A stretch of 64,000 nucleotides of DNA from Candidatus Iainarchaeum sp. GTDB taxonomy: Archaea > Iainarchaeota > Iainarchaeia > Iainarchaeales > DTGL01. The number at the start of each line of letters is the position of its first letter. Within the stretch, counting starts at the first letter, position 1. The notes beneath the pieces are model-generated. The model was not told the origin of the DNA. It saw only the letters and a program-made list of their open reading frames with translations, and searched no databases. Made by a program: the position numbers and the translations under genes. The stretch covers positions 1 to 64,000 of the forward strand of contig JAOAJX010000004.1 in NCBI GenBank assembly GCA_026413945.1, written 5' to 3'. Positions 6,891 to 52,065 of the stretch are shown piece after piece.

Positions 6891-9299
6891 TCAACCACAC
6901 TCCTTATAAGTTTTAATTCTTCTTAATAAGAGCGCTAGCTTAAGTGTCAGAAGTGTTTTTTTGGATTGATAATCTTCAAGGTTCTGCATAGAACTTGAAA
7001 AGATCTCTTTCTCTAAGCGTTCGATGATCTCTTCGTCTTTATTACTGCTGCTTTCTTTAAGTCTTCCGATCAAGTAGTATAAAATATGAACTTTCTTGCT
7101 TCTACTATGTGCACTTTCAAAAAAAGATGTTAATCTGTAAAGCTGTGAAGATGCGATATTAGAGTCGCTTATTTGCTGGCTGAACAGTAAGATTCTAGAC
7201 CAATCTTCCCAACGTATGCTTTTTCCAAATAAGGAAATAGCATCTTTTTCATATTCTTTGTATTTGAAACTCTTTGCGTTATTACACTCTTCTGCTGCAA
7301 TGCCCATGGCAACATTCATAGGATAATGATGACCGAACAAAGTAATTCCGCCCGAGATACTCAGCTTTTTGTTGTAAAATTCTTTGAACTGCTCTACAAG
7401 TTCCTTTGCATGATAAAAAATCATATCGTAGCGGCCGATTATGTAAAGATCATCACCACCCACGAAAACCGTATAGAACAAATCTTTTTCTTCCTTAAGG
7501 TTCCATAACTCAGATACTTTTTTTCCAAAAAACAATAATAGTTGATCTGACATAGTGCTAATTTGTGATAGTGTCTTAGCGCTCTTCACAAACTTTCCTA
7601 AGCTATCGACATCAAGTTTTAAATGTGCTATTTTAGCAGTCTGTGCCTTATTCTCTGCTAACTTAGCTATTTTTTCGAGTTCTGGTGTACCACTGCTTGG
7701 CTTAAAGCCAAAGTCAAATGAAATATCTTTGTTGGAAATAAGTTTTAGAACTTCAGCAACAAACAATTTTTGTCTTTGCTCAAATTTTTCAGTAATGTAA
7801 GAGTAATCCAAAAAGCAGTAGAAAAACCCTGTTTCAAGTTTTCTTGGAAGAACAATATCGTCTTCTTCAGCACAAATTGCTAAATGTCCAAGCTCATTGA
7901 AAGGAGGTTCTAAAAAAATAGCAGATTCTATTAATCCTCCTTTTGGCAAAGCCACAATATTGTTGGAGGATATAAGGTAGATTTTGCTGTAGCTATATTT
8001 TTCACCAATTTTTTCGGCTAATTGACACATCTCGCATAACTGTTTTTCATTTTGTTCTTTGTATTTACCAATTTCCTTAAATCCACAGCTACCACAAGAT
8101 TTTCTGCCAAATTCTGTATCAAACAATATTTCAAACATATCTTCATTGAAAAGCCTTTGCATCTTACACTTAAAGCCTTTATCTTCGTTTAAATTCCCAA
8201 TCAGTTTGCTGAGCTTCTTTGGTTTGAAATCCTCCTTTTTTGCTTCAATCCAAGCTATGTTTAAAAAAAGAGTATCTGTATATTTGATAAAGAACTTGTT
8301 TATATCCGTCAAAGTCCTTTGTAATATTTCTTTGTTTTCTTTTGAATTTGGTGCTAGAATGTAAAATCTACCCCCCGCAGCTAAAACAAGACAACTACGA
8401 TCAAGATTAAGTCTTTTCAAAATTAGCTGAAGGGTTAATTCTGTAAATATCTGAACTAAAAACGAACGCCCTCTACTTCTTTTAGTAAAGCCTTTTTGAT
8501 CTTCGCTTTTGAAAGTTTGAGTTTTTATAAAATTCTGTATTCCTGAGAAGTCACCTAAAATTAACAGAACTGGCTTTTTGCGATCGCCATCAAGCAAAGC
8601 TCTTGTGATAGCAGCCACATTTTTAGAATGTTCAAACAATGAAGTTTTATTTTCACCACTGTGGGTCGAAGCAGGCATAAACCATGTAAACTCTCTAAGC
8701 CAGACCAAAGAATTATTTATTGAGTTATGAAATGACTTATTGCTAACAGCATAACTTAGAGCTAAATTAAAATCACAGTTTTTCAAAATTTTACTAATAT
8801 AACTGTAACTGTAACCGCCTTCATTTACACCGAATGATCTTCCTGAAAATAATTGAAGTGGAAAAAAATCGAATCCATCTTCAGTTTTCTCATCTTTGGC
8901 GTAAGAAAAAAATGATAGAACTCTTGTTTTTTGTAGCTTTTCCTGAAGTGCCATTTTATTATCTGGATCAAAATCATCTATGCCTTCTTGTCTTCCTTCT
9001 CTTTGGCCGGCATCAAATCTGTCGGCTTCTATTAAAATCTTTTTATATTCCTTTACCTCACTTTCTTTCAGAAGCTGCTCTGCAAACTTCAGCTCCTTAT
9101 CACTTAATTTTCTGTGGTAATGATGGTCATAAATAAATGTTTGCACGGCTTTAGAGAAAAAAGGTATTTTTAAGTCATTTAAGTAGGAGGCGCCAACAAA
9201 TGTATGTGGTTCTGCCATATTTTCCATACGCATTATTGCTTTACCAATATCATGGAAAAGAGCTGCAACAATCAAATCTTGCTTTGTTTCAGAATCCAT
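6891..9299 (-). CDS. cas10: Type III-A Cas10/Csm1 (HD nuclease + cyclase)
   Basis: AALFHDIGK HD domain, GDFSGIQNFI, Zn finger CGSCG..CEMC, LKLDVDSLG, VGGDD cyclase motif. Confidence 0.96.
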   Translation of the reverse strand: MDSETKQDLIVAALFHDIGKAIMRMENMAEPHTFVGASYLNDLKIPFFSKAVQTFIYDHHYHRKLSDKELKFAEQLLKESEVKEYKKILIEADRFDAGQREGRQEGIDDFDPDNKMALQEKLQKTRVLSFFSYAKDEKTEDGFDFFPLQLFSGRSFGVNEGGYSYSYISKILKNCDFNLALSYAVSNKSFHNSINNSLVWLREFTWFMPASTHSGENKTSLFEHSKNVAAITRALLDGDRKKPVLLILGDFSGIQNFIKTQTFKSEDQKGFTKRSRGRSFLVQIFTELTLQLILKRLNLDRSCLVLAAGGRFYILAPNSKENKEILQRTLTDINKFFIKYTDTLFLNIAWIEAKKEDFKPKKLSKLIGNLNEDKGFKCKMQRLFNEDMFEILFDTEFGRKSCGSCGFKEIGKYKEQNEKQLCEMCQLAEKIGEKYSYSKIYLISSNNIVALPKGGLIESAIFLEPPFNELGHLAICAEEDDIVLPRKLETGFFYCFLDYSYITEKFEQRQKLFVAEVLKLISNKDISFDFGFKPSSGTPELEKIAKLAENKAQTAKIAHLKLDVDSLGKFVKSAKTLSQISTMSDQLLLFFGKKVSELWNLKEEKDLFYTVFVGGDDLYIIGRYDMIFYHAKELVEQFKEFYNKKLSISGGITLFGHHYPMNVAMGIAAEECNNAKSFKYKEYEKDAISLFGKSIRWEDWSRILLFSQQISDSNIASSQLYRLTSFFESAHSRSKKVHILYYLIGRLKESSSNKDEEIIERLEKEIFSSSMQNLEDYQSKKTLLTLKLALLLRRIKTYKECG

Positions 9300-9508
9300 T
9301 ATAAAAAACTCCCTACAAAAAAGATTTAAACATAACTGAAAACATCTTTTAGTTTATCAAAGCTACTTTATAATTAATTTTATATTTTTATAACAAAAGT
9401 TTTAAAATTATTATAGTCCTAATAACAGTAAAATATATCTTTTACTAATAAAATATAAAAAAAGAGATGGCTGATACCTTTTTAAATTTTAAACACTTTT
9501 TTTATTAA
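9300..9508. promoter_or_regulatory. Divergent promoter region cas10/csa3 with palindrome AGTAAAA-N6-TTTTACT (9427-9446)
   Basis: AT-rich intergenic region between divergent genes, several TATA-like runs, one inverted repeat. Confidence 0.55.
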
Positions 9509-10105
9509 ATGGCTAATGTTCTAATATCAACAATATACTCTGTTGAATCTATAGTTCTAGCGATAACTCGCTTTTCTATAGATCGTGTTTTCCTTTTGAT
9601 AAGTGACGAGTATGACGAGACACAGCAGAAGGCACTAAAACAAATAGAAGATAATTATGCCAAAGTAATCGAAGTTAAAGAAAAAAAGATACCTTTGTAT
9701 GACATTGTAAGCATAACTGAGAAATGTGTAGAGCTAATAGATGCAATTTCGAGCACAGATAGAATTATAATAAATATCACTCCGGCTAGAAAAACACAAT
9801 CAATAGGTTTGCTTTACGCTGCTTATAAAAGAGCTAAGCTAGTAGACAAGATAATTTACATATGTGAAGATAGGAAAGAGGTAATAGTGTTGCCGATACT
9901 TGAATTCTCAATAACTGAGACACAACAACAAATTCTGGAAAACATAAGGCCTGATATGACATTAAATGAGCTATCAAGTAAGCTAAAAAACAAGCAATCA
10001 AAGGCGATGCTTTACAAAAATATAAAAGAATTAAAAGAAAAGGGGTACATAGATTACGGGAAAGGCTTAACCCTCACAGATGCTGGTAAGATTGCAAGAC
10101 TTTAG
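9509..10105 (+). CDS. csa3: Csa3-like CARF + winged-HTH transcriptional regulator
   Basis: Rossmann-like N-terminal domain (IIINITPARK) plus C-terminal wHTH (..LYKNIKELKEKGYI..LTDAGKIARL); divergent from the cas operon. Confidence 0.75.
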   Translation: MANVLISTIYSVESIVLAITRFSIDRVFLLISDEYDETQQKALKQIEDNYAKVIEVKEKKIPLYDIVSITEKCVELIDAISSTDRIIINITPARKTQSIGLLYAAYKRAKLVDKIIYICEDRKEVIVLPILEFSITETQQQILENIRPDMTLNELSSKLKNKQSKAMLYKNIKELKEKGYIDYGKGLTLTDAGKIARL

Positions 10106-10108
10106 TTT

Positions 10109-10840
10109 TCAAAACGATAAAATCTTTACATCTCTTGCATCCTTTATCTCTTTATTCAGGTCTACAACAGCAACTCTTCTTGGCAGTGGATAGTATTTAG
10201 AAGTGAACAGTGTTATGCATCTCATATTATAGCCAAACAGTGGTGCATTGGGCTGATGTGCCCTTATCAGCAGATTCATCTTACATGAAAGCATAACCTT
10301 ATCAAAATGTTCTTTGCTGTATTTAGGCCTCCCAGAGCAAAGGTGAATTCCCTTTAACTCTTCATCAAACTCGAAATCACCCCATGTAATTGCTTTCCAA
10401 TCATCACTGCCTAAAGCAATTCTTTCAATTTCTCTAACACTCTTTATATTTGGCAAAGATCCGTGCAAAGCGATTATGCAATTTTTCGCTACAGCAACTA
10501 GAGGAAGACTCAAAAGCAAAGATGAATAATACTTGTACTCTTCTTTACTCAAAGATGCCCAAAACTCGTCAGGTGAAAATGGTTTAATGCTATGTGCCTC
10601 ATGGTTCCCCATCAAAAGAAAAACATTGTCTGGATGCTTTTCTTTCATCTCTAAAAGATAATCTAAATTTTCCCTTGAAAATTCGCCTCTGTCAACATAG
10701 TCGCCGAGGAGTATTATATTGGTATCTTTATCAAGAAATCTGGAAAAAACTTCTTTTGATGCCTCGACATCACCATGAGTGTCACCTACAAAAACAGCGC
10801 GTTTTCCGGCATTTATTTCTACTAGTCTGCTTTTCAGCAT
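10109..10840 (-). CDS. PPP-family Ser/Thr protein phosphatase (calcineurin-like metallophosphoesterase)
   Basis: GDTHGD, GDYVDRG, GNHE, HG, RAHQ, TLFTS motifs. Confidence 0.88.
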   Translation of the reverse strand: MLKSRLVEINAGKRAVFVGDTHGDVEASKEVFSRFLDKDTNIILLGDYVDRGEFSRENLDYLLEMKEKHPDNVFLLMGNHEAHSIKPFSPDEFWASLSKEEYKYYSSLLLSLPLVAVAKNCIIALHGSLPNIKSVREIERIALGSDDWKAITWGDFEFDEELKGIHLCSGRPKYSKEHFDKVMLSCKMNLLIRAHQPNAPLFGYNMRCITLFTSKYYPLPRRVAVVDLNKEIKDARDVKILSF

Positions 10841-22649: not shown

Positions 22650-22737
22650 GGGCCTGTAGCTCAGTTGGATAGAGCACCGACCTCCTAATTTCAAAGGAGT
22701 TAGTCGGGTGTCGGGGGTTCAAGTCCCTCCGGGCCCG
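22650..22737 (+). tRNA. tRNA-Arg(CCT) with 14-nt intron (22688-22701) at position 37/38
   Basis: Cloverleaf; anticodon CCT at 22684-22686; intron GGAG pairs with CTCC, forming the BHB helix. Confidence 0.92.
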
Positions 22738-35295: not shown

Positions 35296-35357
35296 AATTA
35301 GGAATATTTACCTGCAAAATAATAAAATACTTTTTCAGAACTGCTTTTTTAATCTTT

Positions 35358-35365
35358 GTTAAAGT
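35358..35365. repeat. Left 8-bp target-site duplication GTTAAAGT
   Basis: Identical to 39173-39180; both abut the TIRs. Confidence 0.9.
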
Positions 35366-35386
35366 GGTTCTGTTAACTTAATGTTG
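35366..35386 (+). repeat. Terminal inverted repeat GGTTCTGTTAACTTAATGTTG
   Basis: Exact reverse complement of 39152-39172. Confidence 0.92.
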
Positions 35387-35426
35387 ATGAATTAAACATT
35401 AAAATTTTCATTTTATTACCCCCAAT

Positions 35427-35651
35427 TTAGTCAGAATTAACAGCTTGGAATTTGGTTGCTTTTTGTATCATACATTTCCAATTCTCAACTTCGATATCCA
35501 CTCCAGAGATTTTAGCTGGAGTATTACCATTAAGACTTTGATGAGGTCTTAAGAAGTTATAAAAGACAAACCAACCATCAAGAAATGTTTGGGCTGTTTC
35601 TTGTTTTTTCAATCCTCGCATCGGTTTAAGCCTGTCCTTAAGTGTTCCATG
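35427..35651 (-). pseudogene. DDE transposase C-terminal remnant (IS6-like)
   Basis: HGTLKDRLKPMRGLK..FLDGWFVFYNFLRPHQSLNGNTPA; frame closed by a stop just upstream; ends 40 bp from the TIR. Confidence 0.78.
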
Positions 35652-35801
35652 AAACGAATACTAGTAAGCCTTCCAGATGGGGCATGGAAATTTATCGAGA
35701 AAAAACTAAAGGGCAAACTCGGTGACAAAGAGTCAGAATTAGTTAGAAACATCGTTATCGCTTACTTGTCTGAAAAAGGCTATTTTGAAGATGAGAAATA
35801 G
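35649..35801 (+). CDS. Small ribbon-helix-helix (CopG-like) DNA-binding protein
   Basis: MKRILVSLP beta strand then ..ESELVRNIVIAYL helices; 50 aa. Confidence 0.6.
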   Translation: MKRILVSLPDGAWKFIEKKLKGKLGDKESELVRNIVIAYLSEKGYFEDEK

Positions 35802-35802
35802 C

Positions 35803-35979
35803 ATGGTTGACAAAGAGATCAAAGAGGTAAAAGAAGATATAGAAACTCTTGAGAACATGTTCTCTGCCTTAGTACACATTCTAGAAAAAAAGAAAATACT
35901 TTCTGATAAGGAACTTGACGAACAAATAAAGAGAAGAATTGATAAAGATAAGAAATTAAAGAAATTTGAAGATCTTTGA
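35803..35979 (+). CDS. Small charged coiled-coil hypothetical protein
   Basis: MVDKEIKEVKEDIETLENMF..; follows RHH stop; its own stop abuts the attC-like site (track ORF starts 35785). Confidence 0.55.
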   Translation: MVDKEIKEVKEDIETLENMFSALVHILEKKKILSDKELDEQIKRRIDKDKKLKKFEDL

Positions 35980-36120
35980 TTAACTAATTAGTTCTGAGAA
36001 GTTTGCGAAGCAAATTTCCCCCGAGCCCAATATTTCATGATTAAATTATATATTGGCGAGGGGCGACTGAACGAGCTCTGTAAGAAGCGAGTGAAGGAGT
36101 CAGAACGAGTGTTAGTAGAC
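35978..36120. other. attC-like structured recombination site
   Basis: TAAC(35981-84)-N6-GTTCTGA(35991-97)...TCAGAAC(36100-06)-N4-GTTA(36111-14); internal hairpins TTTGCGAAGCAAA and CCAATAT/ATATTGG. Confidence 0.6.
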
Positions 36121-36353
36121 CGAGTGAGATTGAAGCGTTTAGCAGAATGTCTGAGCGAGGCAAGGAGCTTCGAAGAAGCGACGAAGCGTTGCTGGCGATC
36201 ATTTGGGGCGCCGTGGTTTGCTCCAGTTCAATATAGAAGCAAATCTCGTTTAACCATAGTTCAACGAAATAGCCAGCCTCGCCTTTTATAGAGACTAAAT
36301 GAAAGCCACCTCTCACTAAAAAGTTAATAAATATTATTAGATTATCTTAACAT

Positions 36354-38153
36354 ATGAAAAAAGCATTTGTCTGGGATCCTGTGATGAGATCTTCAGCAAT
36401 AAAATACGATCCTTGTATATTATTAAATGGAAAAATATGTAAAACTAAATGTGATAATTGCAAAATTACTCTTATCGCAGATAGGTTTTTAGGTAAAGAA
36501 TTCCAGCAAGAGATACTTGGAAAAATTGGTGGGAGCAAAGGAAGATACCCGTATGTTATTATCGCCGATAGTTTAGGTTGTAATCTGCATTGTTGGTTCT
36601 GTTACGCATATAAATTTCTTACAAAAGAAAGTGCAGAAGCAAATAAATGCGACATAGCTTATGTTTCTCCTAAAGAACTTGCAGAACAATTTGGTTGCAA
36701 AATCAGAAAATTAGCAGACTTTCAAGAATTACTCAGAGTTGTTGAATCAAAGAATCTCAACGAACAGGTAAAAAAAGCGGCAATTAAACATTTACAGATG
36801 AAATTACCTTTAATGAGGATCAGATTATCGGGTGGTGAACCAACATTCTCAACTAAAGATACATTGTTTGAACCTCAAGATGAAAATCTAATCAAATCTA
36901 CAGTTATGTATTGGCTCTCTTTTTTTAAAGAATTGGATAAAATTATTGGTCTTTTAAAAAAAGATGGAAAATTAAATATTGCCAATAAAATGGATGTTAA
37001 AAATAAAGAGTGGAAAGGAGATTTACCGTTTCCTACATGTCTTGGAGAAAGAGAAGGAAGATTGAATATAAGATACGACACAAATGGTATCATATTTGGC
37101 AACAAAGAAATTACCAAGATGTTTATCGGTGGACTTTTTAAATTATTCAAACAAAATAAGCTAAATCATATATTCATAGAATTTGATTATTCTTTTAAAG
37201 GTGCGACACCTGTTGAATACGAATGGTCTCAAAGGAGAGGTTTACCAGTTGACGCTTCAAAAATCTCTTTTGATTATAAATTAAAAGAACACCCACAAAT
37301 TCCTGGTTATCTAAATATAATCAAAACTATTACTGAGCATTGCAAAAAAGATGTAGAGTTTAATAATTGTGCGGGTATTACTGTAGAAAGAGGTATAAAC
37401 CACAACAAAAGTTTTAAAACATACCTGAATTGCAAAGAATCACTTAATTGGGAAAATTTTTCTAAAAAAAGTAGAATTCGATTCTCAGTCGTAGATAATC
37501 CGATAGAAATGTTTAATTGGAGAAATTATACGCCTAAAAGCTGTTTTATTAAGAACGGTGCGAGCATCAAGGTAATATCAGGAGAAGCAGAATTTGATTT
37601 GAAAAATTGTCCGGATATGAACAAATTTTCTGAATTTGTCCAGAACCATCCAAATTGTTACTTTGTAATATACCCAGTTGAGACCAAAGTTAATCTTCAA
37701 AAAATTACAAAAATAGGAAAAATAAAACTTGATTCTTCCCAAACGACATTAATAGACATGCAGTTTTCTGGTTGGGTCTTTTCTGGTACTAAAGAAAATT
37801 GGAAAATTGCATTGGAAAAAAGAAAGTGGGGTGTTAAGGAAAAAAACCGTTCTCTTTGGCAAAAAATAAAACCTGGGGATATTGTATTATTTTATGTTAC
37901 TACCCCTATAAGTCGAATTATGGGTTTTGGAAAAGTTAAAGAAACTTCTGAAGAAAATTCCCTTTTGTGGCCAGATGAAATAAAAGAGAATAATCTAAAA
38001 TATCCACTAAGAATAATTTTTGAAGAGATGAAATGTATTGAAGATTGGGAAAATGGTGTAAAACCTTTTGGTTTAGAAATAAAACACGGCATAAATCAAG
38101 TTAACAATTATAAAACATTCGAAAAAATAGTCAATACTTTTAGAAATGAATAA
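36354..38153 (+). CDS. Radical SAM protein fused to a C-terminal EVE domain
   Basis: ADSLGCNLHCWFCY, RLSGGEPT, YDTNG; C-terminus ENWKIA..WG..IKPGDIVLFY..GFGKV..WPDE..YPLRI. Confidence 0.82.
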   Translation: MKKAFVWDPVMRSSAIKYDPCILLNGKICKTKCDNCKITLIADRFLGKEFQQEILGKIGGSKGRYPYVIIADSLGCNLHCWFCYAYKFLTKESAEANKCDIAYVSPKELAEQFGCKIRKLADFQELLRVVESKNLNEQVKKAAIKHLQMKLPLMRIRLSGGEPTFSTKDTLFEPQDENLIKSTVMYWLSFFKELDKIIGLLKKDGKLNIANKMDVKNKEWKGDLPFPTCLGEREGRLNIRYDTNGIIFGNKEITKMFIGGLFKLFKQNKLNHIFIEFDYSFKGATPVEYEWSQRRGLPVDASKISFDYKLKEHPQIPGYLNIIKTITEHCKKDVEFNNCAGITVERGINHNKSFKTYLNCKESLNWENFSKKSRIRFSVVDNPIEMFNWRNYTPKSCFIKNGASIKVISGEAEFDLKNCPDMNKFSEFVQNHPNCYFVIYPVETKVNLQKITKIGKIKLDSSQTTLIDMQFSGWVFSGTKENWKIALEKRKWGVKEKNRSLWQKIKPGDIVLFYVTTPISRIMGFGKVKETSEENSLLWPDEIKENNLKYPLRIIFEEMKCIEDWENGVKPFGLEIKHGINQVNNYKTFEKIVNTFRNE

Positions 38154-38159
38154 ACTCAT

Positions 38160-38299
38160 GGCGGCGGCTTCAATATAAATTAAATATAGCCAGCAATGTC
38201 TACTAACAACTATTAAGTGAAATAAATATTCGCTTTATAGTATGAAGAAGTATAAAAAGCGAGATTTTATATAGTCCGTCTCAATAATGTCTCAATAAT
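38160..38299. other. Cassette right boundary / attI-like and integrase promoter region
   Basis: GTCTACTAACA (38198-38208) is the reverse complement of 36110-36120; IR TCGCTTT..AAAGCGA at 38230-38262; tandem GTCTCAATAAT x2 at 38278-38299. Confidence 0.5.
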
Positions 38300-38305
38300 A
38301 AATTT

Positions 38306-39115
38306 ATGACGAACGAGAGCAAGATTTATTCTCCAGAAGAGAGGTATAAACTGATTGGCAAGCTGATTGAAGAAATAAAACTCAGAAGATATTCTTTTCA
38401 AACTGGAAAATCTTATATCTCTATTGCAAAAGACTTTCTGGCGTCAGGAAAGATACCAAGAGAATTTTTGCTGTCTTATACAAACAAAAGCAAATCTGCA
38501 ATGAGGTTTGCCTATTTTGCTTTGAAGTTCTTTCACGAGAATATTCTGAATGCTAAATTCGGGGAAAAGTTGCCGCTTGCCAGAAAATCCATGAAATTGC
38601 CGTTAGTTTTAAGCAAAGAGGAGGTAATCAAAATGATTAACGCCACAAATAATTTGAAGCATAAGCTTGTTATTATGTTTCTCTATTATGCTGGCTTGCG
38701 TCTGAATGAGGTAAGAAATCTCAAATGGGAAGAAATTGATTTTGGCAGAGAGATAATACACTTAAAAACTGCAAAAGGAGATAAGGAACGAATAGTATTT
38801 CTTAATAAAAAACTGACTTATATGCTGAAAATGTATGGAATTAATGAAGAAGGCTTGATTTTTGTTTCTCAAAAATTGGGAAAATACAACAAGAGGACAA
38901 TCCAGCAAATTGTCAAATCCTCTTCCAAGAAAGCAGAGATAAAGAAGAAAATTACACCACATACGCTGCGGCACAGCTTTGCGAATCATCTATTAGAATC
39001 TGGCGCCGATATTCGATACATTCAACATCTTTTAGGCCATAAAGATTTGAAAACAACGCAAATCTACACTCACGTTGCGAATAAGGACATAAAGAAACTT
39101 GCAAATCTGCTTTAG
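38306..39115 (+). CDS. Tyrosine recombinase/integrase with short SAM-like N-terminal domain
   Basis: GLRLNE (R), KGDKER (K), HTLRHSFA (HxxR), LLGH, TQIY; N-terminal LRRYS.QT.KSY. Confidence 0.92.
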   Translation: MTNESKIYSPEERYKLIGKLIEEIKLRRYSFQTGKSYISIAKDFLASGKIPREFLLSYTNKSKSAMRFAYFALKFFHENILNAKFGEKLPLARKSMKLPLVLSKEEVIKMINATNNLKHKLVIMFLYYAGLRLNEVRNLKWEEIDFGREIIHLKTAKGDKERIVFLNKKLTYMLKMYGINEEGLIFVSQKLGKYNKRTIQQIVKSSSKKAEIKKKITPHTLRHSFANHLLESGADIRYIQHLLGHKDLKTTQIYTHVANKDIKKLANLL

Positions 39116-39151
39116 AATTTTAGAAAACATTTACTAAAAACAAATATTGAC

Positions 39152-39172
39152 CAACATTAAGTTAACAGAACC
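39152..39172 (-). repeat. Terminal inverted repeat (right)
   Basis: CAACATTAAGTTAACAGAACC, reverse complement of 35366-35386. Confidence 0.92.
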
Positions 39173-39180
39173 GTTAAAGT
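39173..39180. repeat. Right 8-bp target-site duplication GTTAAAGT
   Basis: Identical to 35358-35365. Confidence 0.9.
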
Positions 39181-39185
39181 CTAGC

Positions 39186-39782
39186 TTAAGAAGCATATTT
39201 CAGTACTACTAAACAACACTCTTGTTCTCTAAGCAGCTCATCTTCGAGGCATTTGCACTTAAAGGAGCCACTATCCATCCATTCAGGCTTTATATCCCGA
39301 TAAAGTGTCTCTTCCAAGTATTTATAAAGGCCTGTAGCCGTTGCTCCGCAAATAACTGACACACTAACTTCTTTCTTATCTAAATTATATCTTATTAGAG
39401 AGCCATCTTCATATGCGCTCCAAGACTTTGAGGGCTTTTCCACCCTACCAAATTCTGTTTCGTCCATATAAACGCCTGGACTCAAGCATATTTGCTTAGA
39501 CTCTATTCCAACATCAGAATTACCCAAAATTGCCTGTGTTGTAATAGTAATATAGCCATCCCTCTTTGAAAAAACTATCTTGCCAGATAATGGCGTTGAC
39601 TTAGACTTGTGGGCATTGTTAAGCACTTCTGCGATTATTTTATTTGGCTCGGAAGTTGAGGGGGGTTTAATTAGACCTAAAATATACAAAAGTATTGTCA
39701 ATATGGCCAGAGCAATTATGGCCGATATAAGAAGTTGAAATGTTGAAAAGGATTGTCCCCTATAATTCATCACATCACCCAA
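39186..39782 (-). CDS. Class III signal peptide (pilin-like) protein
   Basis: RGQSFSTFQLLISAIIALAIL prepilin-type N-terminus; Cys-rich C-terminus. Confidence 0.6.
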   Translation of the reverse strand: MGDVMNYRGQSFSTFQLLISAIIALAILTILLYILGLIKPPSTSEPNKIIAEVLNNAHKSKSTPLSGKIVFSKRDGYITITTQAILGNSDVGIESKQICLSPGVYMDETEFGRVEKPSKSWSAYEDGSLIRYNLDKKEVSVSVICGATATGLYKYLEETLYRDIKPEWMDSGSFKCKCLEDELLREQECCLVVLKYAS

Positions 39783-51918: not shown

Positions 51919-52065
51919 GCCGGGATGGCAGAGCGGCCCAATGCGCCAGCTTGGAGTTCTCCAAATTCTTTCTTTTTATAAAAGAAAGAAAATTTTTAAT
52001 CACGAAGATAAGACCAATGAGCTGGTGTGCGCAAGCACTCGTGGGTTCAAATCCCACTCCCGGCG
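51919..52065 (+). tRNA. tRNA-Ser(GGA) with 63-nt intron (51957-52019)
   Basis: GCCGGGA/TCCCGGC acceptor stem, CCAGC-TTGGAG|intron|A-GCTGG, long variable arm, BHB helix TTGG/CCAA. Confidence 0.9.

Follow-up and report, generated by a model that had tools for sequence, protein, structure and literature searches.

Viruses escape restriction by hypermodifying their DNA bases, and the answers known from their hosts are reader-guided nucleases and, recently, also glycosylases. Viperins, which are radical S-adenosylmethionine (SAM) enzymes of antiviral defence, make free nucleotide analogues. The gene described here joins a putative reader of modified bases, an EVE domain, to a radical SAM core within one polypeptide. 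It lies on a mobile element in a 64,000-nucleotide stretch of DNA from Candidatus Iainarchaeum sp. (GenBank assembly GCA_026413945.1, contig JAOAJX010000004.1, positions 1 to 64,000), referred to in its entirety as the window. By every comparative test available, the fusion gene is both accessory and mobile and belongs to the restriction world. We give an even chance to the reading that its product is a modified-base-directed, single-protein radical enzyme which works like, or as an adjunct to, type IV restriction.

Several described systems share parts of this architecture. VcaM4I (PDB 6yex; PMC7897488) carries an EVE reader fused to an effector in one polypeptide, and enzymes of this EVE-HNH type also resemble the present case in their mobile or defence-type genomic contexts. 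However, the effector here is a radical SAM core rather than an HNH nuclease, and the EVE domain is C-terminal. No nuclease family was found in the fusion protein with Pfam, NCBIfam or PADLOC, and none is encoded adjacent to it in the element; some relatives do have one. Since it contains no nuclease, the fusion protein does not belong to the type IV reader-effector class. The reader of T. gammatolerans McrB (6p0g) comes from the same superfamily, with a Z of 8.4 and 22% identity, and McrB-like genes adjoin EVE-less members of the family in 5 of 25 loci, but there is no GTPase or McrC nuclease in the fusion protein or in the window's genome. The closest relatives of the C-terminal domain in both sequence and fold are the stand-alone archaeal EVE proteins of the UPF0310 group, PH1033 (1wmm) and MJECL36 (2p5d). 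These are, in contrast, single-domain proteins of about 145 aa with no enzyme attached. The EVE census (PMC7641849) reports an association of stand-alone EVE proteins from archaea with restriction systems.

On the side of the radical SAM core, the pyruvate formate-lyase activating enzyme (PFL-AE, 3c8f) and QueE (5tgs) have the same fold and the CxxxCxxC, GGE and DTNG motifs in common with the fusion protein. The latter differs in about 200 extra residues present as insertions, an N-terminal element with four cysteines and a subdomain at the C-terminal side of the core. It also has no NCBIfam match to QueE or to the PFL-AE/NrdG activases, no queuosine-pathway genes were found in the neighbourhoods of its relatives, and no glycyl-radical enzyme partner was found in the 25 loci. 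The prokaryotic viperins (pVip) are comparable in fold and give a weak PADLOC match, but the curated viperin model does not match the fusion protein, and viperins have no reader domain. The preliminary description of the window, made from the DNA letters, did not recognise the pairing as a described system, and full-text literature searches likewise found no paper on a radical SAM-EVE fusion. The only papers with both 'EVE domain' and 'radical SAM' were the EVE census and its preprint (PMC7641849). The single radical SAM mention in the accessible text of the census refers to a neighbouring B12-dependent radical SAM gene in Alteromonadales, and the accessible portions of three of its supplements hold no 'radical' entry. 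Two further papers (PMC4158269, PMC10853773) are, in their accessible parts, unrelated to the fusion.

The open reading frame (ORF) claimed in the preliminary description is present on the plus strand at 36354-38153 and encodes 599 aa, and its features were found to be as reported there. The gene is AT-rich, with a G+C content of 0.306 compared to 0.373 for the window. It encodes the motifs C76-x3-C80-x2-C83, S-G-G-E-P-T (residues 159-164) and D-T-N-G (residues 242-245), as well as extra N-terminal cysteines (C21, C29, C33 and C36). A word-indexed search identified the homologs given in Table 1, with identities calculated across the aligned regions; the only public name among them is 'EVE domain-containing protein', given to proteins from a Candidatus Aenigmatarchaeota metagenome-assembled genome (MAG) and from Archaeoglobus neptunius. 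In the AlphaFold2 model built from these homologs (mean predicted local distance difference test, pLDDT, 88.3; predicted template-modelling score 0.73), a disordered linker separates a large N-terminal domain from a compact C-terminal one. The EVE domain is thus modelled as joined to the radical SAM core by a flexible linker.

The model was compared with PDB entries using VIA-align, and the results of Foldseek agree. The best match to the core was PFL-AE (Z 11.7, root-mean-square deviation (rmsd) 3.5, 212 of 245 residues), followed by QueE (Z 10.5, rmsd 3.5, 194 residues), viperin 5vsl (Z 9.4, rmsd 3.4, 190 residues) and spore photoproduct lyase 4fhc (Z 8.3, rmsd 5.6, 221 residues); many other radical SAM structures matched at Z 7-10. 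The PFL-AE match is spread over model residues 1-407, and the core therefore contains long insertions, as the preliminary description had held. As modelled, the core takes the form of a compact radical SAM barrel, similar to those of the activases and QueE, with about 200 residues in addition. Both the CxxxCxxC motif and a partial TIM-barrel core with the SAM-binding GGE motif are present, while the score for Pfam PF04055 is 16.3 bits, under the cut-off of 29.5. A precomputed PF04055 match is present in three homologs (P0013, P0014, P0016). Up to an E of 0.1, the fusion protein has no match among the radical SAM models of NCBIfam. The family belongs to the radical SAM superfamily as a divergent member.

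Residues invariant in all 21 aligned relatives include the three cysteines of the CxxxCxxC motif, D43, K116, R157, G160-G-E-P163, R240, D242-T-N-G245, S280, K282, G283, E288, W291, H313-P-Q315 and E345. The cysteines C21, C33, C36 and C115 are each kept in 19-20 of the 21 relatives, and all four are gone from one relative, L010; this pattern suggests that they form one additional four-cysteine metal site. A part search of the ESM Atlas returned only viral radical SAM look-alikes of a generic kind (score 0.93, with 122-132 of 256 features in common), which fall below the usual same-family level and were taken as leads only.

The identity of the C-terminus as an EVE domain, on which the preliminary description depended, is confirmed by concordant Pfam, NCBIfam, PDB sequence and fold matches. 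Pfam PF01878 matches residues 474-535 (25.2 bits, cut-off 23, E 1.8e-5), and NCBIfam PRK00809 matches the EVE part only (E 1.1e-13, below its own cut-off). The best PDB sequence matches to the fusion protein were MJECL36 (E 1.4e-5) and PH1033. In fold, a PUA-like beta-barrel, the domain is closest to PH1033 (Z 14.3, rmsd 2.4, 121 residues aligned), with VcaM4I at Z 11.3 (rmsd 3.0, 118 residues); the Foldseek match to 2p5d has an E of 1.1e-6. Seventeen EVE residues are invariant in all 15 fused members compared, and seven of these are aromatic (W474, W492, W502, Y514, W539, Y550, W565); one further aromatic residue, W483, is nearly invariant. Judged from these conserved aromatic residues, the domain may be a reader of modified bases.

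To define the extent of the family, a profile from 21 members was scored against 1,835,955,588 representative proteins. With E limits of 1e-3, 1e-10 and 1e-30, there were 79, 55 and 41 matches, respectively, and many of the matches are fragments. Beneath the family came other radical SAM proteins, matched mostly via the cluster-binding region, the nearest of which also reach no curated NCBIfam model. The family is small and sharply set apart from other radical SAM enzymes. A pattern scan of a genome collection of 185,579 species identified relatives in three contigs (labelled as Bathyarchaeota, Thermoplasmatota and an 'uncultured bacterium' MAG), and a scan of metagenomes identified relatives at 23 loci. 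None of the 68 pattern matches in viral contigs was a relative, and a BFVD viral fold search returned separate EVE/ASCH or radical SAM proteins only, none with the two-domain architecture. Among the genomes of the phylum, 1 of 215, the window's own, has a full family-profile match. The fusion gene is missing from 6/6 same-genus and 12/12 same-family genomes, and is an accessory gene.

The fusion is not a one-off: an EVE domain is present in 22 of 45 near-full-length members, and all 22 match one and the same EVE profile. The 45 sequences include one duplicate, and a maximum-likelihood tree of the core alone was built from 44 rows. The EVE label changes six times on this tree, or four times without the contig-cut row L005 and the truncated row P0016, and three fused members fall outside the main fused clade. 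As fused members stand on several branches, a core and an EVE domain of one type have been repeatedly kept together or rejoined. The radical SAM-EVE finding is real and rare.

The genomic context of the relatives was analyzed at 25 distinct loci (numbered L001 to L026, L025 being a duplicate of L024). Pfam and PADLOC were used to scan the 142 ORFs lying within 4.5 kb of the family gene, and BLASTP to cluster every ORF called at the loci. A nuclease, a restriction gene or a PADLOC candidate is present within 4.5 kb in 16 of the 25 loci, which is not the housekeeping context that would have spoken against the preliminary description; other related loci carry integrases or toxin-antitoxin pairs. 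McrB-like genes neighbour the EVE-less members in L008, L018, L020, L022 and L023, with McrC also in L008 and L022. In L022, the genes for a reader-HNH protein, McrB, McrC and the radical SAM protein follow one another in this order on one strand. The reader-HNH family, an HNH family with a reader-like N-terminus, lies beside EVE-less or fused members in 6 of the 25 loci (L005, L006, L008, L015, L016, L022). Its HNH domain matches E. coli McrA (E 8.8e-13), its N-terminus aligns to the EVE domain of the window (hhalign 75%, E 2.4e-5, 27 columns), and PADLOC calls two of its members type IV enzymes. Other HNH proteins are encoded in L010, L016 and L021, and type II restriction genes in L011, L016 and L026. 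Fused members adjoin a Cas4-like PD-(D/E)XK nuclease and the candidate system PDC-M19 in L003, and a stand-alone EVE protein with a NucS-like PD-(D/E)XK nuclease (PDC-S02) in L006; the PADLOC candidate systems across the loci are PDC-M19, M45, S02 and S27.

Further neighbours are MazG-like proteins (L006, L008, L013, L014, L017), an HD protein (L012), Phage_rep_O and AAA_25 genes beside some relatives, small winged-helix regulators located upstream in five loci, and repair-type proteins (AGOG, Vsr, NucS_C, Tyr-DNA phosphodiesterase-like). A partner of 350-416 aa without a family name (L009, L011, L012, L013, L014; for example L013 2741-3844, minus strand) always lies beside one clade of EVE-less members. 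A PDB sequence search with its profile found nothing useful. Its C-terminal domain has the fold of a LigD 3'-phosphoesterase (Z 9.5 and 8.4, next best 4.5); the AlphaFold2 model of this partner is weak overall (pLDDT 60) and poor for residues 1-140, and the fold match comes from its confident part. As a separate observation, L008 encodes two diverged core paralogs back to back (7449-8840, minus strand, and 9293-10603, plus strand), near genes for reader-HNH, MazG-like and McrBC proteins.

The preliminary description had placed the fusion gene in a mobile cassette as its only large cargo, and the sequence of the element agrees with this. The element is 3807 bp long, its 27-nt inverted ends match at 25 of 27 positions and occur nowhere else in the 0.95-Mb genome, and it is flanked by an 8-bp duplication. 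In two same-genus genomes the site is empty, with the flanks 31-32 bp apart compared to 3848 bp in the window, and with a single diverged copy of the target. The fusion gene is the largest gene of the element and encodes its sole enzyme not concerned with mobility. Of the public sequencing runs listed as containing the stretch, one is a DNA run, X1, and none is an RNA run. In X1, one contig joins 35357 to 39173, with 8 letters that fit both sides, forming an empty-site junction. This contig is supportive rather than conclusive, because its shorter side has only 22 letters, and two further X1 joints in the recombinase region look like related genes of other organisms. The summed depth of X1 contigs was 40-70 at 35308-35615, 35924-36077 and 38696-39157, compared to about 10 for the rest of the element. 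The first of these parts comprises the inverted end and the transposase stump, the second the beginning of the GC-rich segment, and the third the 3' portion of the recombinase gene. The X1 community seems to be rich in related insertion-sequence ends and recombinases.

Of the characters of a DDE insertion sequence, the element has the terminal inverted repeats and the 8-bp duplication but not an intact transposase: a C-terminal stump remains, and the reading frame upstream of it is destroyed. Ends that start with GG, together with an 8-bp duplication, fit insertion sequences of the IS6 type, to which the element may belong. The intact tyrosine recombinase scored 196 bits on the XerA model NF040815 (cut-off 220), compared to 277 bits for the other XerA copy of the genome (C11:138754-139518). 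It was therefore rejected as the housekeeping XerA and assigned as a XerA paralog. Homologous recombinases are encoded near the family gene in L001, L006 and L026.

The partners of the family all deal with nucleic acid or nucleotides, and specifically with modified DNA, and the EVE fusion points the same way; it is for this reason that we favour reader-directed radical chemistry, the proposal of the preliminary description. According to this proposal, the EVE domain would flip a modified base out of foreign nucleic acid, most probably DNA, and bind it. In the radical SAM core, the [4Fe-4S] cluster would be reduced and SAM cleaved to the 5'-deoxyadenosyl radical, which would take a hydrogen either from the nucleotide that is bound or from one next to it. 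The invader might be blocked by the lesion or strand break that results; alternatively, a protective hypermodification might be altered chemically, so that nucleases could cut. In the EVE-less relatives, the reader and the nuclease would come from adjacent genes (reader-HNH, McrBC). It may also be suggested that the MazG-like partner would hydrolyze modified deoxynucleoside triphosphates, and that the LigD-phosphoesterase-like partner would process the sort of blocked 3' end that a sugar radical leaves behind.

A number of points weigh against reader-directed restriction, beginning with the fact that its support is comparative throughout. The top fold match of the core, PFL-AE, activates a protein and is not a nucleic-acid enzyme, and EVE and PUA-like domains bind RNA as well. 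The PADLOC screen that had been suggested as a check holds no model for the protein and returned only the 17-bit pVip match. The window and its closest relatives, L004 and L007, have no adjacent nuclease or other defence gene, and the protein of the window would therefore have to act alone. The neighbourhood counts are raw and without a background control, many of the loci lie on short contigs, and the LigD-phosphoesterase-like, MazG, AGOG, Vsr and NucS-like neighbours are repair families too. In L002, L004 and L022 the family gene is split in two reading frames by a frameshift or a sequencing error; L004, the closest metagenome relative, is 69% identical.

Of the competing explanations, the best surviving one, although we consider it improbable, is the alternative already named in the preliminary description, a modification enzyme. 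The enzyme would write or erase a modification of DNA or nucleotides on behalf of the mobile element, for self-protection or anti-restriction; its core would install, extend or remove a base modification, and the EVE domain would guide it to sites already marked, in a maintenance-like manner. A location on mobile elements with integrases, Phage_rep_O and AAA_25 genes suits such an enzyme, the MazG-like and HD neighbours fit nucleotide-pool editing, and the fold is like that of QueE, which makes a 7-deazapurine precursor. However, the same-strand arrays with McrBC and reader-HNH (L022, L008) place relatives beside proteins that attack modified DNA, no relative was found in the viral contigs scanned, no transferase or base-exchange partner was seen in the neighbourhoods, and the QueE model does not match.

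The pVip match, which covers residues 76-167 at 17.3 bits (E 6e-4), and the viperin fold similarity raise a second alternative, that the protein is a viperin-like synthase of a nucleotide analogue, acting as a chain terminator or toxic analogue within a pool controlled by the MazG-like partners. These partners are present in 5 of the 25 loci, and L012 has an HD neighbour. We regard this as quite unlikely: up to an E of 0.1 there was no match to the NCBIfam viperin model NF038283, the core resembles PFL-AE and QueE more closely in fold than it does viperin, none of the neighbours seen is a nucleotide kinase, and an EVE domain, which reads polymers, has no obvious role in the synthesis of a small molecule.

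The repair-type neighbours listed above, together with the LigD-phosphoesterase-like and MazG-like proteins and the match to spore photoproduct lyase, would fit a DNA repair enzyme whose core reverses a lesion recognised by the EVE domain. Such a function is very unlikely in view of the extremely rare and patchy distribution of the family and its mobile and restriction-type contexts, and the lyase match is weaker than those of other radical SAM folds. Least likely of all is either tRNA/rRNA modification with EVE as the RNA-binding module, for which it may be said that PUA-superfamily domains are common in RNA-modifying enzymes, or the activation of a nuclease partner by the core in the way that PFL-AE, its top fold match, activates PFL, since the gene is missing from all the same-genus and same-family genomes, has only 79 matches among 1.84 billion representatives, and has partners that vary between clades and none in the window. 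The archaeosine enzyme RaSEA was set aside on distribution and not by sequence comparison, because a housekeeping tRNA enzyme would not be missing from all close relatives.

If reader-directed radical restriction is correct, the fusion of a reader to a radical SAM core would be a chemically different answer to hypermodified DNA, and the family would join viperin as the second radical SAM family with an antiviral role, its substrates being polymers instead of free nucleotides. A wider proposal, which we make only tentatively and hold to be doubtful, is that the family constitutes a new class of immune effector, the 'radical restriction enzyme', in which a fused or adjacent reader picks out hypermodified invader DNA and the radical either breaks this DNA or strips the modification for nucleases of the McrBC/HNH type. 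As the family is known publicly only as 'EVE domain-containing protein', it is invisible to current defence finders. The locus also offers a clear natural example of how a defence-type cargo travels on an insertion-sequence shell in an archaeon with a reduced genome.

The features of the element are listed in Table 1. Among the smaller ones, the 70-aa ORF looks ribbon-helix-helix-like and the 64-aa ORF coiled-coil-like by eye; the former has no family match, the latter has weak sub-threshold repeat matches only (E 0.0067 and 0.055, with E up to 0.1 considered), and neither has a homolog in the related loci. The GC-richer segment is single copy in the genome, with RNA fold z-scores of -2.6 (plus strand) and -1.6 (minus strand). 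The 84-aa ORF that overlaps it has no family match, and Rfam, searched up to an E of 1, matched nothing on the element. Possible identities of the segment are a small RNA, the remnant of a gene, or a site of recombination.

Table 1. Features of the radical SAM-EVE element and its cargo gene, with positions in the window (a dot marks features without a strand)
Feature	Position	Strand	Description and basis
Left copy of 8-bp target-site duplication	35358..35365	.	GTTAAAGT; sequence; single copy at the empty site of relatives
Left terminal inverted repeat	35366..35392	.	27 nt, 93% complementary; unique in genome
DDE transposase C-terminal stump	35427..35621	-	About 63-75 aa; Pfam rve_3, E 3.2e-6, profile positions 40-67 of 67
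Two small overlapping ORFs	35589..35979	+	70 aa (probable ATG 35649) and 64 aa; ORF list
GC-richer segment	35990..36320	.	331 nt, overlapped by 84-aa ORF; G+C 0.459 compared to 0.33 for the element
Radical SAM-EVE fusion gene	36354..38153	+	599 aa, stop codon included; ORF list, 19 homologs at 34-100% identity, AlphaFold2 model
Radical SAM core with N- and C-terminal extensions	36354..37703	+	Residues 1-450; fold matches and invariant residues
Span with C21, C33, C36 and C115	36414..36698	+	Putative second four-cysteine metal site; conservation in relatives
CxxxCxxC motif (C76, C80, C83)	36579..36602	+	Site of the SAM-cleaving [4Fe-4S] cluster; read from sequence, 21/21 relatives
Disordered linker	37707..37763	+	Residues 452-470; pLDDT <50 in AlphaFold2 model
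EVE (PUA-like) domain	37764..38150	+	Residues 471-599, putative modified-base reader; Pfam, NCBIfam and fold matches
Tyrosine recombinase	38306..39115	+	Intact, XerA paralog; Pfam Phage_integrase, E 6.5e-43
Right terminal inverted repeat	39146..39172	.	Inverted-repeat search; unique in genome
Right copy of 8-bp target-site duplication	39173..39180	.	Sequence; contig of DNA run X1 joining 35357 to 39173

The host genome (92% complete) shows no C5 DNA methylase, and its matches to N4/N6 methylases are weak or interrupted only. This is compatible with a host that tolerates a modified-base-directed enzyme but is weak evidence for it. The best N4/N6 match, located outside the window (contig C17, 83624-84730), has three in-frame stops (one TGA and two TAG) and may be a pseudogene.

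When applied to the whole window, Rfam detected tRNAs only. Two of these tRNA genes, at 22650-22737 (88 nt) and 51919-52065 (147 nt), were missed by ARAGORN and probably contain introns. To the right of the element, a 197-aa ORF (39186-39782, minus strand) encodes a protein with a hydrophobic N-terminal segment which looks archaeal pilin-like by eye, and paralogs of this ORF are present on contigs C18 (49% identity), C21 and C15.

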